The translations under genes and the position numbers were made by a program. A stretch of DNA of 46,271 nucleotides from a virus (taxonomy: Duplodnaviria > Caudoviricetes): positions 1 to 46,271 of the IMG/VR virus record IMGVR_UViG_3300038673_000984; one strand, written 5' to 3'. This document shows, in pieces, positions 1,870 through 25,622 of the stretch (position 1 is its first letter; every line of letters begins with the position of its first letter). Under the pieces are notes generated by a model. That model was given only the letters and a program-made list of their open reading frames with translations. It did no database searches and was not told the origin of the DNA.

Positions 1870-3618
1870 TTATAAATCATTGGTAAATTCTGCGGAATAA
1901 AGCCGTAAATTTCGTGATCCGATATAATCGGTCCCGCTACCAGAATTATTATAAACGTATAATTGTATTTTATCTCCGACCGCCCATCCACTTATATCCT
2001 CACTGTATGTTGTATATGTATTAGGACACCCGGGTGTAGCTGTCCTCTGTGTTCCAACAGCTAAACCATTCCGATATAATCGCAAGGCACCTCCGTCATC
2101 CCCGCTAAAACATCCATCAAATTTAATTCTTAATGTGCCGCTTTTTTCATTTATAGTTATTTCTTTAACTTTAACCCAAGCACCTCTAGTCGTTTGAGCG
2201 CTGGTCACAGTATCGTTAGTATGTATTAAATTATCTCCTGCGGTATATTGCGGCAAAACAATCCCAGCCACAATATCATCTACATACTTCTTATTCGCTG
2301 TTTGATAATCGCTTGTCGGAGCGCTTGACGGCGAAACCGGAAATGAACTGAATGTTTTAACCCCGGCGATGGTTTGATCACCTGTCTTTGCTACAGCACC
2401 GGCTCCGTCAACAGTGACGAATTCGATCGCAGTCGCCCCGGAATTAACACGCGGCAATTTAGTCGCCTGGCCGGCATAACTTGACGGCGTATCAGTTAAA
2501 CCCAAGAATGTCTGTGATATCGCGCCCAACTCTAACGCACTGCCGGAGGAATTAACCTTCACGTACTGATTAGCGGTATAGCTTGACGGCGTATCTGTGA
2601 GCCCTAAAAAGGTAGTAGCTCCCAGTTTAATGAACGGCCGCACATCTGCAAGGATATACCCCTGAGTCGCGTCTGTATCCTTATCTTCATAATCCAGGAC
2701 CGCTGTCATAGCCGGTTTAAGATAAACCTCTGCGATCGGCACAACATCGGCAGAAACACTCGCCCAGGGCGCCGTTGGAGAACTAGCTTCAGATCCGGTG
2801 ATAAAAGATACTGTTCCGCTTGAATGAGCGACTAAAATATCGATCCTCGGGTTCGATCCAGGAGCGACTAAAGTCGGCGCGGCTTGCGCGTCAACCAATA
2901 ACGGCTGAGATCCCAGATAAACCTGCTTATAATAATCGCCCAGATTGGTACCCCTGACCGCAACCGTCATACCTACCGTAGCTTTAAGAGTATCGAAATA
3001 ATACGTTTTAGAAGCAGTCAATTCCCGGTACCCGTAAGCTGTTATATCCGATAGATCCGCGGCCGTGCCGTTATTACCATCCGGAGAAGTGAGATCGATC
3101 TCATCCTGCTGCCAGGTATCCGCGCTCGCGTTCGATGTTATGTCCCAGTAACTTTGATTGCCGGAACTGTCTTCGACATAAAACTGAAAAGTATCAGCCG
3201 CCTGGCTTGACCTCTCCCAAAGCTTAATTTTTTGATACGCGCTTAAATTAACGACAAAAGATCTTTCAAAGCTCCGGTTGGCCGTGGCATCCGTAACTGC
3301 TTTTAATGAAAAGCTGCCCTCCTGAACAAGTGTACCGCTTACGGATTGCGATGTGATCGTAACGCCGGTGCCGACATACTGCGCCTGGGCCGACGCATTA
3401 CTCGACCATTCCATTTGGTCTAAAATGAATTTTGCTGAAGGTTTTAACGGACCAATATCGTTCTGATCGATCCCGCGCAAAGTGGACCGGAAATCCACTA
3501 CTGAAAGAACATCACGCGGGAAATTATGGTCATACTTATACCGGACCTCATCCGCGGATAAGTTTTGAGCGAACATCAACGCCGCCAACAGCAGCGTCAT
3601 TCTTAAATAAGCTTTCAT
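1870..3618 (-). CDS. Tail fibre / receptor-binding-like protein with N-terminal signal peptide
   Basis: Last gene of tail module; TFLGLTDTPSSY x2, GDQTIAGVKTF and ANKKYVD fibre motifs; N-terminus MKAYLRMTLLLAALMFAQNLSA/DE. Confidence 0.75.
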   Translation of the reverse strand: MKAYLRMTLLLAALMFAQNLSADEVRYKYDHNFPRDVLSVVDFRSTLRGIDQNDIGPLKPSAKFILDQMEWSSNASAQAQYVGTGVTITSQSVSGTLVQEGSFSLKAVTDATANRSFERSFVVNLSAYQKIKLWERSSQAADTFQFYVEDSSGNQSYWDITSNASADTWQQDEIDLTSPDGNNGTAADLSDITAYGYRELTASKTYYFDTLKATVGMTVAVRGTNLGDYYKQVYLGSQPLLVDAQAAPTLVAPGSNPRIDILVAHSSGTVSFITGSEASSPTAPWASVSADVVPIAEVYLKPAMTAVLDYEDKDTDATQGYILADVRPFIKLGATTFLGLTDTPSSYTANQYVKVNSSGSALELGAISQTFLGLTDTPSSYAGQATKLPRVNSGATAIEFVTVDGAGAVAKTGDQTIAGVKTFSSFPVSPSSAPTSDYQTANKKYVDDIVAGIVLPQYTAGDNLIHTNDTVTSAQTTRGAWVKVKEITINEKSGTLRIKFDGCFSGDDGGALRLYRNGLAVGTQRTATPGCPNTYTTYSEDISGWAVGDKIQLYVYNNSGSGTDYIGSRNLRLYSAEFTNDL

Positions 3619-3955
3619 TTTTCAATACCTCCGTTTTTACCTCTTCGACTGTTTTTATAGTTCCGTCCGGTCTGGACGTTTCAAACACCTGGCCGGCTAC
3701 GATAAGTCTTTGCCCGGCCGGATTATTTATGATCTTTTTAGGCGTACTATTGCCGATAAATACTTCTTTCGGATAATGGTTCCCGGATCCGGTCCGGATG
3801 ATCTCATTATCCATTACTGCCCGGGTAATTGTATGAACCTTACCGGCGGGATCTATATATTTGCCTTTATGTATATAGTCTAAATTCGGCAGCTGTATCG
3901 TTTGCACATCCGACATTTCAACCATTTGTTTAAGTTCCGCGCAGTATCCTTTCAT
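3548..3955 (-). CDS. Hypothetical tail-region protein
   Basis: 135-aa ORF coupled (ATGA) to the tail tip gene. Confidence 0.6.
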   Translation of the reverse strand: MKGYCAELKQMVEMSDVQTIQLPNLDYIHKGKYIDPAGKVHTITRAVMDNEIIRTGSGNHYPKEVFIGNSTPKKIINNPAGQRLIVAGQVFETSRPDGTIKTVEEVKTEVLKNESLFKNDAAVGGVDVRSKLIRG

Positions 3956-6900
3956 GCTCCGACCACCTCCCCGCTTACTTCAGCTGTTCCGATATAAGAA
4001 GCACTCACCGGATCCCATACCTTGACCACCATTTCGCTTGTAGTGATCGAAACAAGATGCGGCACACCTAACACGCCATTCGTCACAGTTAAGCCCCGTA
4101 CACGCGGAATCTGCGTAAAATCATCCCTTAAAAGTATGGTAGTGCCACCTGCAGCTATCGATACATCCCGGAATGGAAACTGCTTTGCCGTGGGGGCAGT
4201 GACGTAGGTCCTCTCAGCGTAGAAATAAACTTGTTGAGTTGTATCAGTAGTTGAAAGCACGAATTTGCGTTTTATATACCTTGCGCGGTATGTCTTATCC
4301 AGATCTATAGGAGAGAATGCCGTAAAACTCGTTCCGTCTTCACTGGTGCTTATTTCAACCGAAAGAGACCCTCCAGCTGCATTTTGAATTAACGGTGACA
4401 CCAACAATGTAAATTCGAAGATCACGCCTAAGTCGATCGGGTGAACCTCTTCGATCTCTCCGGTTGCCTCCACAAGCTGCGCGCCGAAATCTAAACCGTC
4501 CCAGTTCTGGCCTTCGACATCCTGCCAGGTGTTTTGAGTTTTCAGCACAAAAACATCCCGGGTATAATTTGGATCGTATAAATTAAGTTGTATCCGATCG
4601 ACATTCGTGAGCTTATATTCCCGATTCTGGGCCCAGAGATCCAATGTCATCGCGAAGTCGCCTTCAGGCGGCGGTACGACAGTTAATGTGTCAGATGCCG
4701 GCAGAGCGCTATAATTTCCGGATGTATCGATAGCCTTGCAAAGAAAAGTAAGTTCGCCGATCGCGCCTACTGTAATTTCTGTCTGAGTTGAGTCTACCAG
4801 CTCAGCAACAACCGTAGCCGAATCCCAGTCAACACCTTGCCGCCACTGATACCGCGCAAGATCTCCGTCCGGGATCGGATTAGATACACGGAGTACAAGT
4901 TTATTCCCTTTTTGGTAAACATCGATCGAACTTATATTGCTAGGCGGGGCAGCTTTACCCTGGATGATTATCGATGATTGAGGACTGCCGGCGGGTAAAT
5001 TTGCAGCCCCACTCTGAGCAACACTAACAACGGCTATAGTGTATGTGACACCGGTCTGAATGCCGTCTTTAATAGTGAAATGCGCATCTGAAGTTTCCCC
5101 GGCAAATTCCCAACTTAAACCAGCATTGTCTGATATATATATCTTGGCTGATTTGTACGGATTAAGGTAGTAAGAAGGCGCAACAGGCTTAGTGAAATAA
5201 ACTTCGATTGTGTTAAAGATAGTCCCGTCGTTTGCCTTTAAAACCATTTCTGATAAAGCTAGATTAGTAACAGAAGGAATTGTGCGGGTAAGAACTGAAT
5301 AATTTACTTCCGGAAGGCTGGGAGCAGAATAGTCGTAGACTAAAGGATCCATTTCTGAAGCCGTGATCTCTACATCAAGATCAGTATCCATCTTAAAGCC
5401 TGATACTCTAAGTTTTTTATAATGGATCTGGTCCTCACCGAAAGCATACTTATCGTATGCTGCCGGAGCAGAAGCGAAAGCCGTATCGACCGTGATAGTA
5501 TCTGTAGTCCCGGGCGTATTCGTGACAGAACGCTCGACGATTAAATCAGTTCCGGCAAATTGGACCAGTAATTTATAAGTTTTTCCAGCCTCTATTGTCA
5601 CTTCCTGATCTAACTTAATTGACATCGTACTGCTGCCGGTCTTGATCCTCCCACTGAACCCGATTCCCGGAGTATCATGACTAAGCCCGATAACGTCTCC
5701 CGGCATACAGGCGATACCATCGATCCCGGCTTTAAATGTGAAGATCTCATCGATCCTTTGCGCGACATTTAACGCCCTACGGCCGGCACGCAACACGTAA
5801 GAGATCCCTGTAGTGTATAGCCGAACAGAAGTCCTCCTCAAAGGATCTCCGCGTTGTAACGCCTCATCATCCATTATCGACACTGTCTCAAGGTTGTAGT
5901 AATTGTCCTTATTCGCAAACTGCACATCGATGCAGTTGAATTTTTCGCGCAATGATTTCCATGTTTGCTTAAGAGATCCCTGATAAGTATTTCCCATACC
6001 GAACATCTGCACCGGATCTTCATCCTCATCGATCTTTATCCTAACCGTGTCCTGATTATAAAAAATAAACGCGTCAAAGGCAGCGGCCAGCTGAGTGAGT
6101 ATGTCCAAAGCAGAATCCTGGCTGTCCAATTGCGCATCGATCCTATAAAGCTTCTCATAACCGCCATTACCATCCGCCATCTTTTGCTCGCAAACCTGAC
6201 TCATATACAAATACTCCGCCGTGTTTATATTGGACGTATCGATAAAATCACCTATACCAAAACGATTATTTGTCAAAAGATCTTTAACAACCCAAATCGG
6301 ATTCGCGCAAAACTGTTCAGTATAAGTAACACCATCCCATGAAAGAACCGTGTCGTCACTTAATAAACGATAGGCTGACACGTCAGGATCATAGTAGTAA
6401 TCCTCCCAATCTACTGGAGTAGCACCGTTTAATATAAGCGGCGCGGATATCTTCCTTCCCTCTACAACGCAATAAAATGAAGGCCGGTTTCCGTCTAACT
6501 GATCAGTAGCCAAAGCCTGGATCCCAACTAAAGCAAGATTAGGATAAGAAAGCTCTTCTGACTGTATCTCATCAAGGATGTAAAAATTAAGCGTTCCGTA
6601 TGTTTGATTAGATTCATTAGGATCATCGGAAGTGCGCGTGACACGGATATCATAGCGGCCGGGAGTTAGACCGGTCTTCCGGAAAGTCCTGTTGATCGCC
6701 GATTGCGATTTTGCTGTTATTGTCGTAATACCGCAATCCGTCCAGGTCCCGCTTGTCGATAACTTGTATTCGACTCGGTAACTAATACTCCAAGATTCAA
6801 GAGCGCCACTATCAGAATTTTGCCTATAAATACCAGGTATCTGAAAGGTTATTTCAAAAGTGTCAACATCATCATTTATTGTTTGCCGGACATGCGGCGT

Positions 6901-7635
6901 GTCTTTAAGAAGAGTCACATCGATCACGTACTCATTATGTAACTGTTCAAATCCGGTTATAGGCGTTTGATCGCTCGTTCCCATTCGGGTGTTTATTGTG
7001 ACATTTGTGTAATTATTCACCGAATTATTGTTAAGCATTATGCCAGATATACTCTCAATCTCACCCTGGCCAATTGAGATCAATATATTCAAATAGCTTT
7101 TTTCACCGTCATGAGAAACGTATTGATTCAAAATATTACCGGCTGCCCCAAAACGGCCATATATAACCGGAATAGCCCCGCCCACATCTGATGTCATCTG
7201 CGGCCCGGAAAATGTATAAGCTGTCGATGTTTCTCCGGTATCAGATGAAACTTTTTTCCGTGATGCCGATACAGATGAATAAATGGAGTATCCGATTGAA
7301 GCCAATGCCATTAGCGTTAAAATCGGATGAACAGTAATTGCCCATACAGCAACCGATACGATAGCTCCCCAAATAGCGCTCATTACGCCTATAACAGCCG
7401 GGATCTCTACTTTCGGTGTTACAATGATCTCATCGCCGGCTTTTACATAGGTCCTCCTTAACTCGTTATTAGGAACATGAAATCCATTTATAATAACCCG
7501 GCATTCCTTATAAGAAAAACCAGCCCGCTTAATCCAAGTCCAAGCCGTTCGCTTTTCTTTTAAAGGAATGAACTGCCTAACCTGCCGGCCGGATCTTTCA
7601 AGAATATTGGGAATATATTTAACCGTTATGTGCAT
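3952..7635 (-). CDS. Central tail tip / host-specificity protein (gpJ-like, N-terminal gpI-like region)
   Basis: 1227 aa; IPVIYG, GQGEIESI, YDIRVTR, SYPNLAL and NPIWVVKDLLTN motifs; Fn3-like C-terminal region. Confidence 0.88.
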   Translation of the reverse strand: MHITVKYIPNILERSGRQVRQFIPLKEKRTAWTWIKRAGFSYKECRVIINGFHVPNNELRRTYVKAGDEIIVTPKVEIPAVIGVMSAIWGAIVSVAVWAITVHPILTLMALASIGYSIYSSVSASRKKVSSDTGETSTAYTFSGPQMTSDVGGAIPVIYGRFGAAGNILNQYVSHDGEKSYLNILISIGQGEIESISGIMLNNNSVNNYTNVTINTRMGTSDQTPITGFEQLHNEYVIDVTLLKDTPHVRQTINDDVDTFEITFQIPGIYRQNSDSGALESWSISYRVEYKLSTSGTWTDCGITTITAKSQSAINRTFRKTGLTPGRYDIRVTRTSDDPNESNQTYGTLNFYILDEIQSEELSYPNLALVGIQALATDQLDGNRPSFYCVVEGRKISAPLILNGATPVDWEDYYYDPDVSAYRLLSDDTVLSWDGVTYTEQFCANPIWVVKDLLTNNRFGIGDFIDTSNINTAEYLYMSQVCEQKMADGNGGYEKLYRIDAQLDSQDSALDILTQLAAAFDAFIFYNQDTVRIKIDEDEDPVQMFGMGNTYQGSLKQTWKSLREKFNCIDVQFANKDNYYNLETVSIMDDEALQRGDPLRRTSVRLYTTGISYVLRAGRRALNVAQRIDEIFTFKAGIDGIACMPGDVIGLSHDTPGIGFSGRIKTGSSTMSIKLDQEVTIEAGKTYKLLVQFAGTDLIVERSVTNTPGTTDTITVDTAFASAPAAYDKYAFGEDQIHYKKLRVSGFKMDTDLDVEITASEMDPLVYDYSAPSLPEVNYSVLTRTIPSVTNLALSEMVLKANDGTIFNTIEVYFTKPVAPSYYLNPYKSAKIYISDNAGLSWEFAGETSDAHFTIKDGIQTGVTYTIAVVSVAQSGAANLPAGSPQSSIIIQGKAAPPSNISSIDVYQKGNKLVLRVSNPIPDGDLARYQWRQGVDWDSATVVAELVDSTQTEITVGAIGELTFLCKAIDTSGNYSALPASDTLTVVPPPEGDFAMTLDLWAQNREYKLTNVDRIQLNLYDPNYTRDVFVLKTQNTWQDVEGQNWDGLDFGAQLVEATGEIEEVHPIDLGVIFEFTLLVSPLIQNAAGGSLSVEISTSEDGTSFTAFSPIDLDKTYRARYIKRKFVLSTTDTTQQVYFYAERTYVTAPTAKQFPFRDVSIAAGGTTILLRDDFTQIPRVRGLTVTNGVLGVPHLVSITTSEMVVKVWDPVSASYIGTAEVSGEVVGA

Positions 7636-8050
7636 CTCTATCCTTTAAATGATAATAACCAATAACCCGGTCTCTCCATTCCGGGGACCCGATCGAACAG
7701 ATCGCCCCGCCCGCCTTACATATATGAAAAAATTTCCCGTCCCGTAAATAAAATCCGGCATGCAGCTCGTCCCCCACTTTGAACAAGATCACGTCATACA
7801 GTCCCGGCTTACTTACTTTCTTCCATCGCTTGTAATAATTTTCAATGTCGATGGCCTTTCCTGAAAACTTGCTTCCGGGCGTTCGGTTTATCTCCAGATC
7901 CCAAACATTAATTCCAAGCCGCAGCTCATACCATAATAGAATGGCACCCCAACAATTCGTTCCTTCTAAAGACCGGCCGGAATCCTTGTGCTGGATCCTT
8001 AAAAACTGCGCAAGTAATTCACTCTCTGCGGGATCTTGTTTACACAACAT
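7619..8050 (-). CDS. NlpC/P60 tail assembly protein (gpK-like)
   Basis: GTNCWG and LHAGFY Cys/His motifs; lies between L- and J-like genes; start uncertain. Confidence 0.8.
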   Translation of the reverse strand: MLCKQDPAESELLAQFLRIQHKDSGRSLEGTNCWGAILLWYELRLGINVWDLEINRTPGSKFSGKAIDIENYYKRWKKVSKPGLYDVILFKVGDELHAGFYLRDGKFFHICKAGGAICSIGSPEWRDRVIGYYHLKDRDAHNG

Positions 8051-8660
8051 AGACAGTTCCTGACGGTATTGACGGGAATCCGCCGAATCTTTGATAATTA
8101 CCAAGCTCCTTACATCTTTGCTTAGTTCTATTACAGGTAGTCTCAGTACCCGTATATCCGCAAGTTAATGGATCCTTAAATGTTTTATAGCGGCAATGAG
8201 TGCGCAGATATTTCTCGCCCGGGATCTTTCTTTCGAGGATATCCAATTTAGTAGTACAAACGAACTGCACGTCTGTGTCATCAGCTGCAGCGGTATCGAT
8301 ATAAACAGCGGCGTCAAGCTTAGCGGTTGGGGATAGCAACTGATTAGCCCAAACCAACCGGATTATGACCTTTTTCCCTCTAAGCCCGGAATAATCGTTC
8401 AGGTAAGATTGAATTAGGCGGGAAACGTTACATACCGTAATAGTGACGGTATCTATTGAACCTTGTGAATTTTCGCCAATCTCATTAAATGTTATTGGAA
8501 ATTTTAAATAAATTTCACCATCAAATACAACATCTATGTCATATCGCGCAAACCGTAAATCATTGCCGGCGCCGTCATAGTCCTCGAGAATAAAAAGTAG
8601 TATCGGCTGGTTTTCACGTTTATTTTTCTCAGATGTAAATATCGCAGTAACATCTTTCAT
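8040..8660 (-). CDS. Minor tail protein L-like
   Basis: C-terminal Cys cluster (HCRY, CGY, CNRT, C) and RFGGFPSI. Confidence 0.82.
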   Translation of the reverse strand: MKDVTAIFTSEKNKRENQPILLFILEDYDGAGNDLRFARYDIDVVFDGEIYLKFPITFNEIGENSQGSIDTVTITVCNVSRLIQSYLNDYSGLRGKKVIIRLVWANQLLSPTAKLDAAVYIDTAAADDTDVQFVCTTKLDILERKIPGEKYLRTHCRYKTFKDPLTCGYTGTETTCNRTKQRCKELGNYQRFGGFPSIPSGTVYVV

Positions 8661-8663
8661 GTA

Positions 8664-8996
8664 CTATATAACTTCCATGATTTTAAACCCGTAACTCCAG
8701 GAATTAGGGGAATCTTTTACATGCCAAAAACTACCTTTAACAAAACGGACAGTCATTTCCTCGCCGTTAATATTAATAGTAAAAGCTGTTAATCCGCCTT
8801 TTTTAGAATCAAAAAAAGCGATCACAGCATCAACCTCTGTCTTTGTACGTACCGAATATGTCGGATTGGCCTGGCGTAGTTTTCCGGATGAAACCAGACG
8901 CGCCTGATCAGCCCAGTTAGCATACTGCTTCTGCAATACGTTATAATCCGGTTCTACCTTGCACCCAAAATCATGGTTATAAAGAAAGTCTGCCAT
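8664..8996 (-). CDS. Distal tail protein (gpM-like)
   Basis: 110 aa after TMP; AFFDSKKGGLTAFT pattern, ends MEVI. Confidence 0.7.
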   Translation of the reverse strand: MADFLYNHDFGCKVEPDYNVLQKQYANWADQARLVSSGKLRQANPTYSVRTKTEVDAVIAFFDSKKGGLTAFTININGEEMTVRFVKGSFWHVKDSPNSWSYGFKIMEVI

Positions 8997-9168
8997 TCGT
9001 AACCTCTGCAGCTAATTTTGCCGCTATTTCCTTTCCGATTATTTCTTGATGATTAACAACTACTTCACTACGCATAGACACCAAAACTAGTGGAACTACT
9101 TGATCATCATTGATCATCAAATAATCACGTATACGCGGACTCTGGTCTATTACAATTACTTTATGCAT
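8977..9168 (-). CDS. Small hypothetical protein
   Basis: 63-aa ORF overlapping both neighbours and supplying the GAGG RBS of the next gene. Confidence 0.5.
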   Translation of the reverse strand: MHKVIVIDQSPRIRDYLMINDDQVVPLVLVSMRSEVVVNHQEIIGKEIAAKLAAEVTNGRLSL

Positions 9169-10968: not shown

Positions 10969-10997
10969 TTCTGAATAATAAAGCCAGACTGCCAGTT

Positions 10998-11444: not shown

Positions 11445-12596
11445 TTACAAACAGAGCAAAGCCCAGGAGTCATTTTTAGTGGTCAATGATCCGTTTAGCT
11501 GAAAATCTGCCTGGACGATAGCAAGTCCGTCCCTGCTCCCCGGTTTAATATTGGTGTATTGCATTTTAGGAGCATAGAACTCAAATTTATTGCCGGCTAC
11601 GGTCCCCCAAGGTATCCTTAATTCCATTTGCGTCATATCTTCGAGCTTTGTATAAAAATCATGCTCCGATACGGCAACTAAAAGCGGATCCATAGTTCCG
11701 GTAACTTTCCGGTTTGTTATCTGGAAAGATTTGATTCCTCTAGCGGAACCGGGATCATCAACATCTTTTAAAGTTGCCTCAGCGTTTATTTCGATCGTTG
11801 AGAACTTTGGAGTGAATGAATCGACATAAACCGGACTATTCATCAATTTTGGATAAGTAGGGACCGACAAACCAGTGCCGGTGGTAAAAAGAGCTTGATC
11901 AGCAACCCCATCAAATACACCGGAAAATTCAAGAGCAGCCATAACCCTGCGGCCGGTGGGGAAGGTCAGCTTCCATTTACCGCGTGCGCCGCGCAATTTT
12001 TTCAGATGCTCATGGTTATTTGCGGATAAAGACATTGACGGTACCGAATCAACAATAGGTTCATAAACAAACCCTGCCGCAGTTGCGACGGAAGAAGTTG
12101 TCGCGGTCGCGCCTGACGTTCCTCCGGTCAGAACTTCACCTGATTGAAAGGTACCGGAGAGAACAACGGCATAAAGAATGGTCGTTCCGGTAGTTGTTTT
12201 CTTTATGACACGGCCGGTTGCGTTAGAAGTTCCACCGGTAACGGTTTCCCCATGTTGAAATGGTCCGCCTGTGATAGCCCCGATCGTCAAAGAAGACAAA
12301 ACACTTTCGCCTGCGCCGCACGCGCGGAAATATTTACCGAATTTTGGTTGCGTGGCTACAGATCCAGATCCATAACAACCGAAGTTAAGTGCCAATGATC
12401 CGGGTATTTTACCTATCAACAAAGGAAGTGAATCAAAGCTGTCCCTTGCGGGATTGGACTCCTCCGTATCGGGCGCTATTTCAACTTCCGGATTTTCCGC
12501 CAGAAGATCCACATCTCCCGCGTCTAATGTTTCTGCTACACCTTCGCTGGCTTCTATGGCACCGGCCACCTGGCGTATTTCGGCTAATTTCGTCAT
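11445..12596 (-). CDS. Major tail tube protein with inserted repeat domain
   Basis: 383 aa; ITNRKVTGTMDP and GTVAGNKFEFYAPK tube motifs; no sheath gene in the window. Confidence 0.8.
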   Translation of the reverse strand: MTKLAEIRQVAGAIEASEGVAETLDAGDVDLLAENPEVEIAPDTEESNPARDSFDSLPLLIGKIPGSLALNFGCYGSGSVATQPKFGKYFRACGAGESVLSSLTIGAITGGPFQHGETVTGGTSNATGRVIKKTTTGTTILYAVVLSGTFQSGEVLTGGTSGATATTSSVATAAGFVYEPIVDSVPSMSLSANNHEHLKKLRGARGKWKLTFPTGRRVMAALEFSGVFDGVADQALFTTGTGLSVPTYPKLMNSPVYVDSFTPKFSTIEINAEATLKDVDDPGSARGIKSFQITNRKVTGTMDPLLVAVSEHDFYTKLEDMTQMELRIPWGTVAGNKFEFYAPKMQYTNIKPGSRDGLAIVQADFQLNGSLTTKNDSWALLCL

Positions 12597-12605
12597 TTAG
12601 TCCTC

Positions 12606-15169: not shown

Positions 15170-15901
15170 TTAAGCAACAGGAATGGCGAGAATGAACAAC
15201 TCTATATCAGCTGATGCGGCGGACGATTCAACGGTTATATCTGCACCGGAAGCGACTTCCTGTTGGGCCTCCACAAGACTTGCAGCGCGTACTATCGCAT
15301 CTACCGTTACACCTTTAGCAAGAACAGCGGTTGATATGGATGTCCCTGCGTTTTTAACAGTAATGTTTGCAGCCGTATTATCGATCGCTTTGATCCACCA
15401 ATCGATAATGCGGAGTTTACGAGTAGTCGTGGCAACTGCTATCGGAGTGGGAACTGCATCGAAATTACACACCTTCCGGATCAATATCGGTAGAACCCCT
15501 TTATTTGCCTCCTCGGTTACAACCATATTTGCACCAATCGCTCCAGCTGCACCGTTGTTCTGTAAACATTCGATAATATCACCGTCAGCGGTAGCAGCTT
15601 CTAAGGCTATGCCTTGAGCTGTACCATTTACAGCGTCGTCGATCTTTCCATCCGCGGCCCCGTAAATAACTGCATTTAACGCAACCGGTCCTGCTGCTAC
15701 CATTTTGTAACTTTGGACTGATGTGCGTAATTCAACGGCAACCTGATCACCGCTGGCAACTTTTTCCAGAGTGATACCAATAAATTCTTCACCTGCACCC
15801 GCATAAATTACGGTAAAAGATGCGGATAACTTTACGCGGCGAAAAGCTTCAAGAGCTGCTCCGGCGGTAAATGTCATTGGACTCTTAGATACTTTACTCA
15901 T
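15170..15901 (-). CDS. Head decoration / capsid cement protein (DUF2190-like) with C-terminal extension
   Basis: GIALEAATADGDIIE motif; about 125 extra C-terminal residues. Confidence 0.75.
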   Translation of the reverse strand: MSKVSKSPMTFTAGAALEAFRRVKLSASFTVIYAGAGEEFIGITLEKVASGDQVAVELRTSVQSYKMVAAGPVALNAVIYGAADGKIDDAVNGTAQGIALEAATADGDIIECLQNNGAAGAIGANMVVTEEANKGVLPILIRKVCNFDAVPTPIAVATTTRKLRIIDWWIKAIDNTAANITVKNAGTSISTAVLAKGVTVDAIVRAASLVEAQQEVASGADITVESSAASADIELFILAIPVA

Positions 15902-17337: not shown

Positions 17338-18976
17338 CTTCTTTGTCCTCCTGCCCGGGATCTTTGCCGTTGTCCGGGTTATTCTCTTTTTCTTTATTTG
17401 GAAAAGATTTATTCACGGCCGGCTTTGTACCGGAGAGTTTTATCCCGTACTTCTCTTCGAGCTCTTTCTTTTTCTTCTCTTCTTTGGCTCTCTGTTCCAA
17501 TATTTCTTCCCAATCATCGCCTTTACCTGCGAGCTCGTCGGACATAGTGGTTAAATTATTATCGATCGCGGTAACGGAAGCATTGGCTTCTTTCTCCGGA
17601 TCTACCCATTTCCAGCCAGGCGCTATCCATCGTGCTTTTATGTATTCGGACCGGTTAGAATAAAAATCCAATATTGGCAATTCACCCATTAAATAAGCCT
17701 CTTCCAGCAATAAAGACCAAATAGGCATACATAAATTACGGATAACAAAGTCCTGTTGTTTCCCAAAAAACCGGTAAGCTTCGATCAAAGCGGCACGCAT
17801 ATTCGAGTAATTCGATTTCGAAAAATCCTTTGCCACTATTTCATAAGGAAGGCCAACACCTGCAGCTGCTTCACGCAAGATCACTTCCATGAATAAGCCA
17901 AAAGTTCCTCCCGGCCGGTTTGGATTAAAAGCGACGATATCTTCACCCGGAAGTAAACGCTTAACGATCCCTGGACTTAATGTTTCCGCGCGTTTTGTAG
18001 TGTCACCGGTTACGGTATTCGGATTAAAGGTATTTGAAAAAGGAACCTCTTTTTTTATAAATACAGCGAAACAAGCGGCAACCCGGGCGGCCACCATTTC
18101 CGATTCCATATAGTCAGCCCGATCTTTAAAAATATTAAGGACCGGTGAGAAGAAAGGCTCACCCCGGCTCTGTCCAGCTCTCTTGACGTGATATAAATGA
18201 TAGATATTCGGATCGCCTAGATCGTTATATGCCGGATAAATGACAAAATTATCCGGGTTATTGCTGGATGAAAATGCGGAGTAGTTATAATCACCCGGAT
18301 GAGTTTTACGGATGTAATATTCGATCGCTTCGCCATAATCGCCTATTTTTATCCCGGATCTCACTGTTTTATCAGCTGTCATTCCGTTCGGAGTGCATAA
18401 CCGGTCTGACTCAACCACCTGTAACGCTAAAGAATAACGACGGCGCCGCTTAGAGTTCTTAACTCTTAAAGGAATAATGATCGATTCACCATTAATGAAC
18501 CTTTGACGCTCTTCCAGTTCTTCGATCTCATAAAAGTTCTGACGATTACCGGCATCCGCGGCAGGAACCCATTCTTTCCAAACCTTTTCTATCTGCTTGG
18601 TTAATTCAAACGCATATTCTTCGCTTATTTTCAGCTCATCTTTATCGATATTACTCTGCGGACGGATCCCGGACCCAATAACATTAGTGACGATCGTCTC
18701 AACAGCTCCGCTCGCAATACCGTCATTGCGCACCAGATCACGGCTTCTTTCCCGCAATTTTGGGAGATCACTTAACAGGTCATAATCAGCCGAACCTCCA
18801 CCAGGCAGCCAATTACCACGCAACCGGCCGCCTTGCGCGCCCCGGTAAGATCCGGTCATCTGTTTAATTGCCCAACGTGCGGCCTGACGCTTTGCTGCTG
18901 CAGCCGGAGAAAAAACAGCGATCGCGTCATCGATCCGGTCGCCTAAAGTTTTCTTATATCCGTTTTGGTTTGCCAT
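17321..18976 (-). CDS. Portal protein, lambda family
   Basis: LRERSRDLVRN, GQSRGEP, NYSNMRAAL and WVDPEKE motifs. Confidence 0.95.
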   Translation of the reverse strand: MANQNGYKKTLGDRIDDAIAVFSPAAAAKRQAARWAIKQMTGSYRGAQGGRLRGNWLPGGGSADYDLLSDLPKLRERSRDLVRNDGIASGAVETIVTNVIGSGIRPQSNIDKDELKISEEYAFELTKQIEKVWKEWVPAADAGNRQNFYEIEELEERQRFINGESIIIPLRVKNSKRRRRYSLALQVVESDRLCTPNGMTADKTVRSGIKIGDYGEAIEYYIRKTHPGDYNYSAFSSSNNPDNFVIYPAYNDLGDPNIYHLYHVKRAGQSRGEPFFSPVLNIFKDRADYMESEMVAARVAACFAVFIKKEVPFSNTFNPNTVTGDTTKRAETLSPGIVKRLLPGEDIVAFNPNRPGGTFGLFMEVILREAAAGVGLPYEIVAKDFSKSNYSNMRAALIEAYRFFGKQQDFVIRNLCMPIWSLLLEEAYLMGELPILDFYSNRSEYIKARWIAPGWKWVDPEKEANASVTAIDNNLTTMSDELAGKGDDWEEILEQRAKEEKKKKELEEKYGIKLSGTKPAVNKSFPNKEKENNPDNGKDPGQEDKEDEKNK

Positions 18977-18977
18977 T

Positions 18978-19469
18978 TTATGCATTCTCGAATTCCGCGT
19001 ATGTACGCGTTATGCCAGAAGAACAGGCTAGTTTTTTTGTGTAATACATCTCTAAACTTTGAAGCTCTGAAAGTGACATATACTGAATATTCCGGCCGTT
19101 AATGCTGTAAGACTGGATCGCTTCATTATTTATCTTGGCGTATATCGCTTTCTGGATCAGGTCCAGCATCTCCTGGACTGTAGGAACGGCCGAAGGCATT
19201 GAACTTGTAGAGATAGCACTTACCGCCCGGAATTCCTGCTGATATTTAACATCGAGCGTGGAATTGGTTACCTCCACGATATAAACTTCACCGACTACAG
19301 CCGGCGTAAAAGTTACTTTCCAGCTGATACCGCCGACAAACGTCGGAACCCCAAAAGCGAATATAGAACCGTCACTACCCTTGCGGATCTCATAAGTGAT
19401 CGTATCTGTCGATTTCGACTCGGGTACCGGGATGATCGCGAAGAATGATTGATTGACGGTTATGTTCAT
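18978..19469 (-). CDS. gpW-like head completion protein with extra N-terminal beta domain
   Basis: C-terminal QSYSINGRNIQYMSLSEL; directly upstream of portal. Confidence 0.7.
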   Translation of the reverse strand: MNITVNQSFFAIIPVPESKSTDTITYEIRKGSDGSIFAFGVPTFVGGISWKVTFTPAVVGEVYIVEVTNSTLDVKYQQEFRAVSAISTSSMPSAVPTVQEMLDLIQKAIYAKINNEAIQSYSINGRNIQYMSLSELQSLEMYYTKKLACSSGITRTYAEFENA

Positions 19470-19741
19470 GCAGCAACCTCAACTTTAGCCTTTCCACGGT
19501 AAACATTAGTTACTGTGATATCCAATCTCGCGTCTGTTACCGAAACGATATATATTTCGCCGACCACTGTAGGCGTGAACGTTACTTTCCAGCTGATACC
19601 TCCGATAAATACCGGAAGGCCGCTCTGAATAACTTCGCCGTTACTGCCTTTTCGGATCGTGTACCACATCTCGTCGGATAATAACGATTCATTAACTGCG
19701 AATACGGCGATAAATGGATGGTTTACTTTTATGTCTTCCAT
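19466..19741 (-). CDS. Stand-alone paralogue of the gpW N-terminal beta domain
   Basis: Shares IRKGS.G and GGISWKVTFTP.VVGE.YIV with 18978..19469; ATG 19741 with GAGG RBS. Confidence 0.75.
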   Translation of the reverse strand: MEDIKVNHPFIAVFAVNESLLSDEMWYTIRKGSNGEVIQSGLPVFIGGISWKVTFTPTVVGEIYIVSVTDARLDITVTNVYRGKAKVEVAA

Positions 19742-19758
19742 AACCTCTACAAATAAAA

Positions 19759-19902
19759 AAAGCGGCAATCGAGTGATTGGGCACCCAATTGCCGCATGTG
19801 TTTGAATTCAGGCCGCGAACCCGAATTTTTTATTATTGTATTTTCATATTACGATACGTTAATACCGAAAGTAAAGAAAACGCTTCAACACAGTTGAAAA
19901 TA
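19759..19902 (-). promoter_or_regulatory. Late promoter/leader unit, copy A (operator, promoter, hairpin, terminator)
   Basis: TTCAAC-N3-GTTGAA at 19884-19898; TTTACT-18-TAATAT; 14-bp stem plus U-tract; near-identical to 25640..25783. Confidence 0.75.
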
Positions 19903-19904
19903 TT

Positions 19905-20453
19905 TTAAACTCCAGCCCAAACTCCCATTAATTCCATCCGCTCAGACTTTTGATACGCCTCATCCAGCTCAACCGGATTTGGCCTTTTCCCGGTCAAATC
20001 AGGAATTATCACGCTGGCATATTTACCGGTACGTTCGCTGCAATACGCCCGCCAGGGATTATTTATCCAGCGCAAGCCGGTAGCTTGTCCAATAATACCG
20101 GGAAAATCATAGAACCGCTTAAACCAGGACGCATTCAGGTCAACATCAACACAGTTCAAAATTAATTTTTTTTCGAACGGCTTTATATCTTTACACCGCC
20201 AAAACTTTAAAATAACACCCTTACGGACATAACTATCCAGCGGGATCTCCTTATATAGAAGATTTTGCGACGCAAAATAACCGGCTCTGCGCATGATCAT
20301 GGAATGGTTTAAGTTTCCGCCAGTGCGTTCCCGTATGCCGAAGCCGACTATCCCGCGGATATCACAAACACTTACAAAAACCGGACAGTCTTCGTCTTTG
20401 ATCAAATAAGGATCGATATACTTTGCAGCTGCTGCTACAGATGTAATTTCCAT
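19905..20453 (-). CDS. Permuted papain-like (YiiX/YebB, NlpC/P60 superfamily) amidase
   Basis: Early His (LNHSMI), YDF motif, late AYCSE Cys. Confidence 0.75.
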   Translation of the reverse strand: MEITSVAAAAKYIDPYLIKDEDCPVFVSVCDIRGIVGFGIRERTGGNLNHSMIMRRAGYFASQNLLYKEIPLDSYVRKGVILKFWRCKDIKPFEKKLILNCVDVDLNASWFKRFYDFPGIIGQATGLRWINNPWRAYCSERTGKYASVIIPDLTGKRPNPVELDEAYQKSERMELMGVWAGV

Positions 20454-20626
20454 TATTTGAATGCCTCCAGTTTGGTTACAGCGTTATAAACGATCTCCCC
20501 GTCACCGGTTGCGTAAGGGCTTTTAATATCTTTGCCATTTAAATATATGTTGGTCGTGCGAGTAATGCTGCAACCGGCTACGATCAAACATAAAATAAAA
20601 ATGCTTTTATACGACAGATTCGACAT
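20453..20626 (-). CDS. 57-aa lipoprotein (absent from ORF track)
   Basis: GGAGG RBS; MSNLSYKSILFLCLIVAG/CSITR lipobox; TAATG coupling to the next gene. Confidence 0.75.
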   Translation of the reverse strand: MSNLSYKSIFILCLIVAGCSITRTTNIYLNGKDIKSPYATGDGEIVYNAVTKLEAFK

Positions 20627-20801
20627 TTTTCGTATCCTCCTCTAAGGGGATCTTTAATATCACCGCGTCATATTCATCGATGATCCTGCGATATTTTTCC
20701 GCCGAATCCTGAAGGGTTAATATCGCCCGTTGTATCGTTCCATACTGCTGAGCGGCCAGATGACGCAATTGACTGATCAATTCCCATTCGGCTTTCGTCA
20801 T
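20607..20801 (-). CDS. Small hypothetical protein
   Basis: 64-aa helical ORF within the operon. Confidence 0.55.
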   Translation of the reverse strand: MTKAEWELISQLRHLAAQQYGTIQRAILTLQDSAEKYRRIIDEYDAVILKIPLEEDTKNVESVV

Positions 20802-20815
20802 AACCGCCCCCGGTT

Positions 20816-21208
20816 CTAGTTACGGTTTGCGTTAGCGATTTTAGCCAGTTCCTGCATCATAAACGTTTTCAGATCATCGATTTTTATCTCCAAATGGCCT
20901 ATTTTTTTATTAAAATTTTCAACTGCACTGGCCGTATTTTTATGAAGAACATCACACATTTCTTTCCTGACAAAATTCGATTCAAACAGCGTTTTATACT
21001 CATCGAATCTGGAATAAATGCGCGATATTTTATGATCGACCTCGTCTTTGTGTTTTTTTAATGCCTCGTCAAGCTTTTCCGATATTTTCTCCTCATGCTT
21101 ACCAAGCTTGTAAGATATTCGCGCTACGGCGGCAATGATCCCAGCTAAATAGAACAGTATTGATAGTCCAATCTTTACCCATTCGTAATTTACATGCTGA
21201 GTTTCCAT
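20816..21208 (-). CDS. Single-TM plus coiled-coil protein, holin/inner-spanin-like
   Basis: IGLSILFYLAGIIAAVA TM followed by a charged coiled coil. Confidence 0.55.
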   Translation of the reverse strand: METQHVNYEWVKIGLSILFYLAGIIAAVARISYKLGKHEEKISEKLDEALKKHKDEVDHKISRIYSRFDEYKTLFESNFVRKEMCDVLHKNTASAVENFNKKIGHLEIKIDDLKTFMMQELAKIANANRN

Positions 21209-21222
21209 GCCACCCCCTTACA

Positions 21223-24153
21223 TTAACGATGTATGCGTATCATTGATTCTATACCGGTATATACTCCGGATTCTTTGTCGCCGTCTGTCGCGTCATTAAC
21301 ACCGGATAAGATATTGCCGGCAGTTCCGGCCGCGTATGATCCGGGAAGTTCTACGGACCAGGGATCACCGGCCGCGGATGCGGCATTAAGCTTGTTACCG
21401 GTTGTTCCTGATGTTAAATGGCCGCTGATCGGCTCATCCCAAACAGCATCGGCGATCTCTAAAGAAGTGGCGCAGCTGGACCCGCCAACCGCTGATATTT
21501 GTCCGTCAAGGTAATATCCGAATGTGCCAGCAGTTGAATGCCCGGATTGAGCCTCATCCCAAATAGCATCGATCCCGGCCGCGCTTAACACATAGCCGGT
21601 CTTATCCCACGTGGTTAAATTGGTCACGGTCCCGATTGTTACTGCAGACTGATCAGCTGCCAGACTATAACCCGTTTTATCATTATTTGTCGTAACGGTA
21701 ACGCCGGCCGTCACGCTTGCGCATGACCCAACCACGTTGCCGCCAACATTGCCAGTAACAGATGCAACCGCACCGCCGGCATAAGTTGACCTGGTTGATA
21801 TAGCAGCGTCAAGATTGGGCGCTTCGCTTGATGTAATGGCATTTGCCGCAATTGCTCCGGCATCTATGGCATTGTCAGCAATTTCGCTTGCGCCGATCGC
21901 GTTCGCCGCGATCGATGCAGCTGTGATCGTGTCAGTGCCCAATGCCGTTATAGTGCCGCCGGTAACTGTCCTGGCTGCAACCGCCCAAACGTCAGCTGCG
22001 GAGTGAGTGCTAAACCCTGTGGCTTTGTATTGTGAAGGATTATCCAGATCGGCTTGTATTGTGGATAAAGAAGCAGGTAATGTTGTGCCTGTGTCTTCTA
22101 AAATTGCTGCAATACTTGTGTTATCTGGAGCAGTATAACTTGCCGATGCTAAACGTGACGATATAGACGCATTAAGGTTGGAACCTAAAATATAACCGGC
22201 TGTTCCGGCTCCATACGCACCAGGAAGCGCGGTGCTCCATGGATCTGCAGCTGCCCCCCAGTTACCAATAATATATCCCGCAGATCCTACAGTATAAGAT
22301 CCTGGAACTTGCGTTGACCATGGATCTCCAGCCGCACCTGCGTTTTTTAAATAAGTTCCAGCATACCCAGCTGTTGAATATGCTGAAATATCTTTATTCC
22401 AAATACTCGATATTCCCGATGAGCTTAACTCATACCCCGTCTTATCATTATTCGTTGTTATAGTCACACCATTCGTGACATTAATTGTTGTCCCAATTGT
22501 TACACCTGATTGATCAGCTTCTAAACTAAATCCGGTTTTATCTGATACCGTCCCAGCCGTAACTGCTCCCCCGGCTGTAATCGCTAAGCTTGAGAAGTTT
22601 GTCGGAAAAGCTTGAGAAAGAGAATAACCAGTTTTATCGTTATTTGTCGTAACGGTAACGCCGTTTGTGACGTTGGTTACGGTCCCGATCGTAGTACCAT
22701 TAATATCAATGGTTGTGCTGTCTTCATCTAAGGCAGTTAAAGTGCGAGTCGCTGATGTCCATACGTCAGCGGCAGAATGGCTGGACCGGCTTGAGATCGA
22801 AGCGTTCAGATTATTTCCGATAATATAACCGGCCGTTCCTGCGCCGTATGCTCCCGGCAAAGCTGTGGACCACGGATCCCCCGCGCTGCCTGCGCCTACA
22901 AGGTAAGTTCCTGCATATCCTGCGGTCACATACCCAGAAATGTCTTTATTCCAGATTGAAGTGATCGCCGCGGATGAAATGCCAAAATCAGCTTTATCGG
23001 TAAGGCTGCGAGTTGCCACCGCCCAAACATCTGCGGCTGAATGTGTGCTGAACCCTGTGGCCTTGTATTGGTCCGGATTATCAAGGTCAGCCTGTGCCGT
23101 TGCCAGTGCCGCGGCCGTTGCCAGCCCGGAAACATCTGCTTTAAAATCACTAGCCACTGCTTGCATGCCAATAACAATATCCTCAACCGATGGAGCAATT
23201 ACGCTACTAACCGTAGCGTCGAGATTATCCTCGATCAGCAATCCATAAGAACCGAAAACATTATTTTCTGATGTTGAGTATCCCCAAACAAATGAAGCTA
23301 GGACTCCAGATGCTGTCGGATTTAACGTATCAATCAAATCCATTTGGTCCCCGGCCTGCGCCGCTGTTTTGGCTGCATCATAAGCTGTAGTTAAAGTCAT
23401 AGCGTCACCCGTGGCGGCCGGTGAAACTGGCAAATTATCGGTCTTAGCCTGAATAGCATTAACAGTTGTATTAATAGTACCGGCTAACGCATAAGCATCA
23501 CCGCTTTGGGCGTTATGAGTGCCAGCTGCCAGTGTCCCAATTATCCGGTCTTGCAAGGTATCAAGAATACTTGCGCCATTTTCTTCCATTTCTGTCTGGA
23601 TCTCAGCAACTGTAGGAACTGCTTCAATAGCAGTTTTAAGCGAACTATTGCCGTATGTGCCGTTATTAACGATCGCATAAGCATCGCCGGTCTGCGCTGT
23701 ATGCCCGGTTAAGGCGGCAACCTCATCAACTTTGCCGCTTGTCACATTGATCGCCCCGCCGTCGTCTGTTGTTGCAAGGTTGAGCGGATCTCCGACAAGT
23801 GTACGGATTAAAAGCGTCTGCGGTATTGCTCCTGTCGTTGATGATTTGACTTGCACGATAACATAATCAGCGTTCATTTCGCTTTGAGTAAGTGATAAAT
23901 AATATTGCCCATTAGAGCCTATCTCCGTTGCTTCATTAGTACAATCAGTGAACCCATCCGGAGCCGCCCCATCAGAAAAAGCGTCAATCTCCGAATCAAG
24001 CCCGGCCGCCCCCGTGATCAATGTGCCGTCGTTCTTCATGATCGGGAACGAAACATGCGTTGCCACATTTTTTTGACGTACGAGTTCGGCGGCTTGTGCC
24101 GTCATCGATGCCAGAAGAAAAAAGGCCGCCATCAATGAAATGAATTTTTTCAT
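21223..24153 (-). CDS. 976-aa Ala/Gly/Thr-rich repetitive protein with Sec signal peptide
   Basis: MKKFISLMAAFFLLASMTAQA/AE; repeated DPWS, DKTG and HSAADVW units. Confidence 0.85.
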   Translation of the reverse strand: MKKFISLMAAFFLLASMTAQAAELVRQKNVATHVSFPIMKNDGTLITGAAGLDSEIDAFSDGAAPDGFTDCTNEATEIGSNGQYYLSLTQSEMNADYVIVQVKSSTTGAIPQTLLIRTLVGDPLNLATTDDGGAINVTSGKVDEVAALTGHTAQTGDAYAIVNNGTYGNSSLKTAIEAVPTVAEIQTEMEENGASILDTLQDRIIGTLAAGTHNAQSGDAYALAGTINTTVNAIQAKTDNLPVSPAATGDAMTLTTAYDAAKTAAQAGDQMDLIDTLNPTASGVLASFVWGYSTSENNVFGSYGLLIEDNLDATVSSVIAPSVEDIVIGMQAVASDFKADVSGLATAAALATAQADLDNPDQYKATGFSTHSAADVWAVATRSLTDKADFGISSAAITSIWNKDISGYVTAGYAGTYLVGAGSAGDPWSTALPGAYGAGTAGYIIGNNLNASISSRSSHSAADVWTSATRTLTALDEDSTTIDINGTTIGTVTNVTNGVTVTTNNDKTGYSLSQAFPTNFSSLAITAGGAVTAGTVSDKTGFSLEADQSGVTIGTTINVTNGVTITTNNDKTGYELSSSGISSIWNKDISAYSTAGYAGTYLKNAGAAGDPWSTQVPGSYTVGSAGYIIGNWGAAADPWSTALPGAYGAGTAGYILGSNLNASISSRLASASYTAPDNTSIAAILEDTGTTLPASLSTIQADLDNPSQYKATGFSTHSAADVWAVAARTVTGGTITALGTDTITAASIAANAIGASEIADNAIDAGAIAANAITSSEAPNLDAAISTRSTYAGGAVASVTGNVGGNVVGSCASVTAGVTVTTNNDKTGYSLAADQSAVTIGTVTNLTTWDKTGYVLSAAGIDAIWDEAQSGHSTAGTFGYYLDGQISAVGGSSCATSLEIADAVWDEPISGHLTSGTTGNKLNAASAAGDPWSVELPGSYAAGTAGNILSGVNDATDGDKESGVYTGIESMIRIHR

Positions 24154-25622
24154 TAAAACACCCCCACGTTAATGCCTACATTGATTGAGTTGAAAGGAAA
24201 ATAGTTAGTATCACCACTGTCGCTGACGGTTACTTCTAAGTAAGGGTCTGTGGTTGTCCCGGAATATTCGGATGATCTAATCGATACCGTGTTCGTTGAC
24301 GTTATTGGCGTCACATTTTCGATATCTAATCCTGTTCGCATACCAAATTTAGAGAACCCTGTTTTAGATATCCAAGTTAATCCAGTAGAATTCAAATTTA
24401 TTTGGTAATACTGACTTGTAGTGTGATCACTCTCATTAAGCCGCGCTCCTTCGGATGGTGAATTTAATTCACCGCAAGTATCAAAATCTTTGGTAGAGAG
24501 TGTCGTTGTGGATGCTTGAGTTGTTTGAACGAAAGCTATATAATTAGATGTGACTTCATCAAAAAATCTGTTACTTATTATATAAAGATTCAGTGATGCA
24601 CTTTCTATAGTAGCAGCATCATCAATACCAGAAGTATCTATTGGTAGAAAAACTCTACGAATATAATAATTCGTAGTGACTTTTACTGTATTTACATCAA
24701 AGGATGTACTTGTATAATCTGCAGTACTACCTGTAGTCGCCCCCCTGACGGTTGTCCAAGAAGCATTTACATTCTGAACAAACCCATCACCAGCACCTTC
24801 GTAATAACTTGTAGGGTGATCTGTATATAATGGATAAACTGCTTTTTGTAGAACTTCCGGAGTAATTATTTTTCTTAAATAAGTTCTGCCATCTTTTACA
24901 TACAAAATAATATCAACGGATTCATTGAGTTCACTGCTATCCCAAACACGGGCATCCCTAAAATAACTCTCCTTTTTTTCAGGTCCTATTTTTAAAATTT
25001 TTCCTTTAAATTCAAGTTGACTTGTTTTGGTCCACACCTGATTCTCTATACTTTTAACTAATTCTTTATTTGCTTTATCTCGAGGCAAATCCATTTCAAA
25101 ATCAAAAAATAATTCTTTAGTGGTGTCTGTTGGTTTTTTATTAATAACGATTACTTTTTTTAACCCTGCCCAATAAGCATACACTTTTAAATCAATACCT
25201 TTACCAAACGCATCTTTGTATAAAACAAAGTTGCCATCATCTGCGTTGTTATGCATTTCACCTTTAACGTGCGCGCAAACAGGTTTTGCTCTAATGGTAT
25301 GATTTGCCCCCTCGTAATTGTTATAAAACTCAAACCAATCGTCAGCATATTGAGGAATTTTAGGCAAATAAGATGCTTTTGATAATTTCCATTTTTTATC
25401 TACAGCATCTAACTCCAATCTTGTATCTATCTTTTCAAAAGCTCCGGTTTTTGGATCTTTATAATTTACGTGAGCAGTATGAATGACATACTTTTTCTTT
25501 CCGTTTCCAATATCAAAAGCATTTTGGTTATATGTTCTTTTGTTTAAAATTTCTTGTTGGGCAAAGCAAACCCCATCGATATGCACAAAGAAAAAAAATA
25601 ATGCTAAGATGATTTTACGCAT
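24153..25622 (-). CDS. Secreted protein with DNRLRE-like C-terminal domain
   Basis: MRKIILALFFFFVHIDGVCFA/QQ; RRVFLPIDTS..IESASLNLY..SSEYSGTTTDPYLEVT; ATG 25622 with GGAGG. Confidence 0.75.
   Translation of the reverse strand: MRKIILALFFFFVHIDGVCFAQQEILNKRTYNQNAFDIGNGKKKYVIHTAHVNYKDPKTGAFEKIDTRLELDAVDKKWKLSKASYLPKIPQYADDWFEFYNNYEGANHTIRAKPVCAHVKGEMHNNADDGNFVLYKDAFGKGIDLKVYAYWAGLKKVIVINKKPTDTTKELFFDFEMDLPRDKANKELVKSIENQVWTKTSQLEFKGKILKIGPEKKESYFRDARVWDSSELNESVDIILYVKDGRTYLRKIITPEVLQKAVYPLYTDHPTSYYEGAGDGFVQNVNASWTTVRGATTGSTADYTSTSFDVNTVKVTTNYYIRRVFLPIDTSGIDDAATIESASLNLYIISNRFFDEVTSNYIAFVQTTQASTTTLSTKDFDTCGELNSPSEGARLNESDHTTSQYYQINLNSTGLTWISKTGFSKFGMRTGLDIENVTPITSTNTVSIRSSEYSGTTTDPYLEVTVSDSGDTNYFPFNSINVGINVGVF

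Follow-up and report, generated by a model that had tools for sequence, protein, structure and literature searches.

The whole assembly of a tailed-phage particle is generally placed in the cytoplasm, and the fibres of lambda, T4, phi29 and phiCbK, which are synthesised there, are not known to carry signal peptides. The 46,271-nt stretch of viral DNA analysed here over its whole length (the window; IMG/VR record IMGVR_UViG_3300038673_000984, Caudoviricetes) raises the question of how fibres bearing export signals could become part of such a particle. A preliminary description had assigned Sec-type signal peptides to three late-operon proteins, F1 (positions 1870-3618), F2 (21223-24153) and F3 (24153-25622), and none to the capsid, portal and tube proteins. 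As judged from sequence, the export leaders on these accessory virion-type proteins are real; they are under selection, yet optional. Our preferred reading, to which we give a probability of about 60%, is that F1, F2 and F3 are exported through Sec, stored in the periplasm and docked onto the particles at lysis.

Sec-type leaders on F1, F2 and F3

The three open reading frames (ORFs) lie on the minus strand and have the N-termini given in the preliminary description. Their starts are preceded by a Shine-Dalgarno (SD) sequence, GGAGGT for F1 and F3 and a weaker GGGGG for F2; a TTG start nine codons earlier (25649) is possible for F3, yet the SD sequence precedes the ATG at 25622. Each protein begins with a basic n-region, a hydrophobic h-region and small residues at -3 and -1, which is the anatomy of a leader for Sec and signal peptidase I, and cleavage is predicted after residue 22 (F1), 21 (F2) and 21 (F3). 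A strict n/h/c rule of our own called leaders in 4 of the 52 window genes, namely F1, F2, F3 and a 57-aa lipoprotein (20453-20626) missing from the earlier list; it made no call for the capsid, portal, tube or central tail tip protein gpJ, so that both descriptive claims were borne out. By chance, the rule called 0.7% of random sequences with the composition of the window and 1.2, 6.5 and 2.1% of shuffled N-termini; of 1807 internal windows, it called none. The c-region of the F3 leader is atypical (His-Ile-Asp); clear leaders are present on 37 of 99 F3 homologues.

Leader selection and leader states in homologues

Homologues that cover the N-terminal domain occur in two states. Leaders were assigned to 30 of 101 F1 homologues (71 leaderless), or 32 (69 leaderless) after relabelling of two gene calls that were truncated, including that of the window protein. 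For F2 (n = 130) the split was 73 with a leader, 51 leaderless and 6 unassigned, and the F3 homologues without clear leaders comprised 59 leaderless and 3 unassigned forms. An index-free search recovered 2640 relatives of the F2 domain; in the best 150, 76 start at the domain, 69 carry a leader of 19-30 residues and 5 do otherwise, three of the latter being truncated or extended gene calls. Conservation of the leader among relatives, a check named in the preliminary description, thus held for about half of the homologues, which keep 19-30 residues; the rest begin at, or a few residues from, the predicted cut. At the DNA level, leaderless forms mostly have an SD-led ATG at the cut site, in many cases closely preceded by an in-frame stop, and three loci (L131, L228 and L231; L numbers denote loci throughout) have no leader remnant.

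The residue at -1 is alanine in 26 of 26 F1 leaders and 57 of 61 F2 leaders, and that at -3 is alanine in 51 of 61 F2 leaders. The -3/-1 rule is well established, and residues held so tightly imply that cleavage is under selection. Median identity was 0.30-0.35 in the leaders vs 0.45-0.66 at the mature start. Selection on the leaders, whose anatomy is kept while their sequence diverges, is therefore well supported by these comparisons. Homologues of core virion proteins and terminase gave 1 leader call in 264, on a spurious upstream start of gpJ, and a looser rule gave 2 calls in 339 core virion homologues. Because leader anatomy is kept despite sequence divergence and homologues without a leader begin where the cut is predicted, export is well supported, and Sec export with cleavage of F1, F2 and F3 is highly probable.

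In trees of the mature domains, which were quick trees with many weak branches, the leader state changed 4 times for F1 (one gain and three losses, with the midpoint root among leaderless forms), 12 times for F2, where strong branches force 5 of the changes, and 17 times for F3 (8 forced). These trees indicate that the leader is optional and mobile, having been gained or lost repeatedly.

The F2 tail and the head-tail adaptor

F2 is a repeat fibre with no Pfam, PHROG or NCBIfam match; among the tblastn matches listed, there was one weak match to a cultured phage, and the nearest Atlas clusters of its N-domain are viral hypothetical proteins. The C-terminal motif YxGIExxIRxxR was found in 26 of 65 leader forms of F2 vs 0 of 21 leaderless forms, and in the best-150 set in 8 of 69 vs 0 of 76. 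Of 42 F2 loci, 5 combine this motif with the extra N-terminal domain of the gpW-like head-tail adaptor, 35 lack the two and 2 are discordant (p = 4e-5); motif and domain are also present together in L003, L312, L313 and L314, which lie outside this table. One discordant case, L001, is an unrelated contig that we interpret as podovirus-like from its gene order; there, the adaptor domain is on the gene that follows F2 (E = 3e-8). The adaptor domain is paired with a variant F2 tail in L149, which has different head genes, and other F2 tail types are paired with other adaptor N-domains (L159, L169 and L150). No leader was found in the seven adaptor homologues. An apparently exported F2 thus seems to carry a tail that tracks a cytoplasmic virion protein.

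Homology between the F2 N-domain and the adaptor domain was considered and rejected, as profile comparison revealed no similarity; from their strand patterns, both may be Ig-like. A complex prediction for a trimer of the F2 tail with the adaptor domain (score 0.00, mark 0.32, controls not folded) is evidence neither way.

The F3 slot and its Gly tag

The predicted model of the lectin-like protein F3 has a predicted local distance difference test (pLDDT) score of 91. Its DNRLRE domain matches NF033679 (39.3 bits vs a cut-off of 34), and its fold resembles chondroitin- and alginate-binding carbohydrate-binding modules (CBMs; Z = 14.8 and 12.9); no cultured-phage relative was found among the tblastn matches listed. 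The gene upstream of F2 is swappable: F3 occupies this position in the window, and LamG, beta-helix, DUF2341 or DUF7483 proteins do so elsewhere, yet these unrelated partners end in a Gly-rich tag. A pattern for the tag matched 18 of 2229 non-redundant genes of at least 150 aa, all 18 directly upstream of F2; since it was drawn from these same tails, its sensitivity is circular, but its specificity is not. Third codon positions vary within the tag, and such synonymous variation points to conservation at the protein level.

Leader-bearing neighbours were present at 14 of 17 leader-F2 loci vs 6 of 32 leaderless-F2 loci. The immediate upstream partner itself had a leader at 12 of 15 leader-F2 loci vs 0 of 7 leaderless ones (Fisher p = 7e-4). 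This partner count excludes the outgroup loci, L150 and L181, where the upstream gene is outside the sequence at hand, and L160 and L001, where it is untagged and lies at a distance of 161 and 671 nt. The strict rule calls two of the three partner misses, and the third, L159, has a leader-like stretch behind a long N-terminal extension. The leader state of F3 thus appears to follow that of F2. In the outgroup F2 subfamilies (L009, L179, L189, L191, L193, L195 and L201), the partner has a different, RxWGGVP-like tail, which suggests that several tag-domain pairs exist.

F1 as a probable side tail fibre

F1 has the layout of a side tail fibre, with a slot downstream of gpJ, a conserved N-terminal module, repeats and a variable tip, but departs from the lambda-like norm of leaderless cytoplasmic synthesis, since the window protein has a leader, as do 32 of 101 homologues. 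The AlphaFold monomer model has a pLDDT of 75. In a second look at Foldseek matches, residues 63-216 resembled the HFTV1 turret domain (Z = 17.1, root-mean-square deviation 2.1, 139 aligned) and CBM11 (Z = 15.8); residues 217-330 carry no fold assignment. The FLGLTDTP-type repeats are shared with the phiCbK tail fibre, the BppL_N-like motif is below cut-off, and the tips of the family vary (collar, Gp10_C or Gly-rich). One small gene, g135, lies between gpJ and F1, as in the mapped relatives, and it precedes F1, after gpJ, in the 13 loci where it was recognised. We take g135 to be similar to DUF5679; it has no Pfam match. In L065 and L082, a shorter zinc-ribbon form of g135 stands before a leaderless F1.

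In L082 (10034-11978), L258 and L260, F1 is split into a leaderless module of 307-309 aa and a downstream leader-bearing gene, so that adjoining genes need not have the same leader state; the split would fit parts that meet only after export. Downstream of a leaderless F1 of 346 aa, L068 (11039-15559) and L134 (11046-13992) have a Cys-containing gene and further genes that bear radical-SAM-like CxxxCxxC motifs.

Proposed assembly route and alternatives

We propose that F1, F2 and F3, as late-operon fibre or lectin-like proteins, would pass via Sec to the periplasm, lose their leaders and be stored there, and would dock, once lysis breaches the inner membrane, onto particles assembled in the cytoplasm. 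The Gly tag of F3 may bind the F2 N-domain and the C-terminal motif of F2 the extra domain of the leaderless adaptor, so that the neck would bear an appendage with an exchangeable lectin at its end; F1 may bind the tail tip. Fibres of T4 and P22 are known to attach in vitro to completed particles. The route builds on the predicted leaders, the two-state pattern, the gene slots and the tags with their co-occurrence. Given export, storage followed by docking at lysis is reasonably likely. Late docking would work from either compartment, and a leader could therefore be gained or lost easily. As a guess, export may be of benefit by keeping sticky glycan-binding parts apart until release. A broader proposal is more tentative and, in our estimate, somewhat short of an even chance: a widespread group of tailed phages may complete its particles in two compartments, with heads and tails made in the cytoplasm and Sec-secreted receptor-binding appendages kept in the periplasm until peptide-to-domain docks clip them on at lysis, and with the exact gain or loss of a leader of about 20 codons switching the route of each module.

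The preliminary description held that exported fibres or appendages fold in the periplasm and join virions at lysis or egress, or else decorate the surface of the infected cell. Export is supported by the leaders, and joining is suggested by the gene slots, the adaptor-linked tail and the annotation of phage phi10:1 (see below); a need for periplasmic disulphides or glycosylation found no support. This last point is among several that weigh against the proposed route. The leader is missing from about half of the homologues, and leaderless F1 is also present in genomes of Omnitrophota, the probable host group, so export is not an obligatory step for these families. Of 5 phage contigs, 3 combine F1 and F2 of unlike state (L065/L150, L082/L159 and L131/L312), and the two states agree in the window and L047/L167; with 0 of 9 leader-F1 loci having a leader-bearing neighbour, a phage-wide on/off switch was rejected. 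In a sign test, the 2-3 independent contrasts behind the co-state of F2 and its partner gave p = 0.5. Most loci with the tail/adaptor pair are from related lambda-like phages, and the patterns for both motifs were derived from the same loci. Leader forms have no cysteine gain (0.64 vs 1.03% for F1, 0.24 vs 0.46% for F2 and 0.82 vs 0.80% for F3), and no consistent excess of N-sequons was found in the leader forms of the three proteins; disulphides and N-glycosylation are thus unsupported as the reason for export.

Among the alternatives, the one that survives best, though we consider it unlikely, is that the proteins are exported but act off the particle, where they would cover the infected cell or its debris, mask or sequester receptor glycans, or serve as adhesins like the MAT fibres of Bdellovibrio. 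The CBM-like domains of F1 and F3 would suit such a role, and F3-F2 have their own copy of an upstream two-hairpin element. MAT fibres, in the accessible part of their description (PMC10769870), are phage-like and surface-displayed, and share with F2 a layout of signal peptide, conserved beta-rich N-domain and variable adhesive tips, a comparison of layout only. However, they form a chromosomal family of predator-surface proteins outside prophages, whereas F2 lies in a prophage morphogenesis operon and its domain occurs in 2 of 401 sampled Omnitrophota genomes, both times within prophages. In five relatives (L167, L152, L168, L312 and L313), the two-hairpin element is positioned after terminase, at the start of a cassette made up of one or two leader-bearing genes and of F2, gpW and portal. 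Stops and starts within it abut or overlap, which places the F2 cassette in the head operon. F1 is the sole side-fibre candidate and occupies the slot after gpJ, the F2 tail tracks a leaderless neck protein, and no membrane anchor or lipobox was seen on the proteins, all of which favour a place on the virion.

Leaky or slow export has slightly poorer prospects. A cytoplasmic fraction, with its leader intact or made from a second start, would build the virion, and the exported fraction would have a side role. Leaderless orthologues in the same slots imply that cytoplasmic assembly works, and an ATG or GTG is found near the cut in 10 of 29 leader loci; however, an SD-led start is found there in 0 of 29, by which a second internal start at the cut was rejected, and the tightly held -3/-1 residues imply selection on cleavage. 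It is very improbable that whole particles enter an enlarged periplasm, are completed there and leave by a non-canonical egress: general family scans of the window proteins gave no classical holin or endolysin match and the host is probably a member of the PVC superphylum, both of which would fit, but the core genes lack leaders, a transmembrane (TM) protein, a lipoprotein and a probable amidase are grouped as in a lysis cassette, and no transport genes were seen in the window. Least credible is that the leaders are relics without function, or arise from overlapping genes or errors in gene prediction, as the 71-nt overlap of g135 with the F1 leader might suggest, since this overlap ranges from 4 to 86 nt across loci, the g135 tail is not conserved, leader anatomy is kept across divergent leaders, and the F2 and F3 leaders have no such overlap.

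Comparison with known systems

The gp091-gp094 proteins of Cellulophaga phage phi10:1 (GenBank KC821618.1) are encoded after the tail genes and annotated 'structural protein, MS/MS'. By the same rule, each has a Sec-type leader, as does gp095, and 13 other phi10:1 genes tested do not; the leaders of gp091-gp094 are thus known from rule-based prediction and their virion presence from annotation. The phage differs in its Bacteroidota host and has no F1, F2 or F3 match among the tblastn matches listed (for F1, the best 25 of 27). We know of no leaderless twins or docking tags in phi10:1, and no discussion of its protein export was found in the open-access literature. In that literature, we also found no paper on exported fibres that join tailed virions. 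The earlier claim of an undescribed step therefore stands for the literature searched, but is qualified by the leader-bearing virion proteins in the phi10:1 record.

Inovirus proteins stay membrane-anchored while the phage is extruded, and lysis proteins are not virion parts. The pIII and pVIII proteins of filamentous phages, signal-arrest-release (SAR) and secreted endolysins, and spanins are, like F1-F3, Sec-routed phage proteins (accessible parts of PMC12989515 and PMC3556154); F1-F3 differ from them as soluble siphovirus-type fibre proteins with predicted cleavable leaders. Lambda Stf, the T4 and phi29 fibres, and phiCbK gp76 and gp101 have, like the proteins studied here, a slot after gpJ or beside head genes and variable lectin-like tips. 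The accessible part of PMC3556154 mentions no signal peptide on phiCbK gp76, and that of the HFTV1 preprint has no mention of 'signal'.

New in the present locus are the swappable Gly-tagged lectin slot and the link between F2 tail and adaptor, which together would form the proposed docking chain. If this reading is correct, the parts that set host range mature outside the cytoplasm, and particles are completed while the cell lyses or afterwards. Naturally occurring twins with and without a leader, together with the two short, portable tags, make the idea testable in E. coli and in vitro with no need to culture the host, phi10:1 is a cultured phage open to N-terminal proteomics, and the tags could act as a plug-in system to display lectins on particles.

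Genomic setting and other features

By its gene content, the window appears to be a lambda-like prophage adjoining tRNA-Arg, with two host-like genes and the tRNA at its left end and an integrase at its right end (Table 1). A 43-nt piece of the tRNA region is repeated in contigs from a public run and is also joined to the integrase end, and is therefore likely to be the attachment core, the contigs fitting integrated and excised forms alike. This core spans the 5' half of tRNA-Arg. The late gene set is lambda-like (gpA-type terminase, portal, S49 protease, capsid E, gpL, NlpC and gpJ). The host probably belongs to the Omnitrophota, because six of the eight genome loci matching most of the F1 N-module are titled Omnitrophota (one each Planctomycetales and Saccharibacteria) and the inositol monophosphatase encoded in the flank shares 44-49% identity with genes from 3 of 151 Omnitrophota genomes. 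Periplasmic cytochromes and an outer-membrane secretin are reported for Omnitrophota in the accessible part of PMC10066038.

Table 1. Positions of the features discussed, in window coordinates
Feature	Position	Strand	Remarks
tRNA-Arg(CCG)	1578-1651	-	with 43-nt repeated core 1612-1654
F1, predicted side tail fibre, 582 aa	1870..3618	-	leader 1-22, CBM11-like 63-216, conserved module to ~330
F1 C-terminal part	within 1870..3618	-	fibre repeats, BppL_N-like motif, variable tip
F1 predicted Sec-type leader, aa 1-22	3553..3618	-	overlapped out of frame by non-conserved g135 tail
g135, small protein between gpJ and F1	3548..3955	-	no leader; CxxC..CxxC in relatives, partly lost here
gpJ, central tail tip protein	3952..7635	-	no leader
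gpW-like head-tail adaptor	18978..19469	-	leaderless; extra N-terminal beta domain of ~89 aa (19203-19469)
g100, stand-alone duplicate of adaptor N-terminal domain	19466..19741	-	
Two-hairpin element, second copy, ~150 nt	19753..19906	-	before g100, heading head operon
Probable lysis-type cassette	19905..21208	-	130-aa TM + coiled-coil, 64-aa, 57-aa lipoprotein, 182-aa
F2, repeat fibre, 976 aa	21223..24153	-	leader 1-21, conserved ~108-aa N-domain (23767-24090), mosaic repeats
F2 C-terminal YxGIExxIRxxR motif	within 21223..24153	-	
F2 predicted Sec-type leader	24091..24153	-	A-Q-A cut
F3, lectin-like, 489 aa	24153..25622	-	leader 1-21, beta-supersandwich, DNRLRE/CBM domain aa 302-465
F3 C-terminal Gly tag	24156-24203	-	
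F3 predicted Sec-type leader	25560..25622	-	
Two-hairpin element, first copy, ~150 nt	25634..25787	-	directly before F3 SD
Tyrosine integrase	45201..46271	+	right end

The hairpins of the two-hairpin element have z values of -3.5 and -4.0. Lysogenic-conversion morons would have a promoter and a terminator of their own outside late-operon control; a promoter scan was at chance level (20 vs 25.0), and the element before F3 also heads the head operon. It is possibly a late promoter or a leader RNA. It has no Rfam match; the Rfam scan of the window returned two tRNAs only. A phage tRNA-Met(CAT) lies at 40106-40182 (minus strand).

The lysis-like cassette, on the minus strand inside the head region between the two copies of this element, has no family matches; its 182-aa protein also lacks one, and we take it to resemble a permuted NlpC/P60 protein. 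In related phages, TM genes after F1 stand in place of this cassette. The major tail protein (11445-12596, minus strand) has an inserted beta domain (about aa 109-173) that matches a PHROG tail-fibre family, and the decoration-like protein (15170-15901, minus strand) has 243 aa with a second domain, the L159 form having 119 aa. An early-region protein (40772-41359, minus strand) without a family match consists of an N-terminal TM helix and a soluble domain; L045 and L267 have leader-bearing genes in a similar early position. Between the repressor and the integrase (43419-45200, plus strand) lie a response-regulator receiver gene and a NYN-domain gene.

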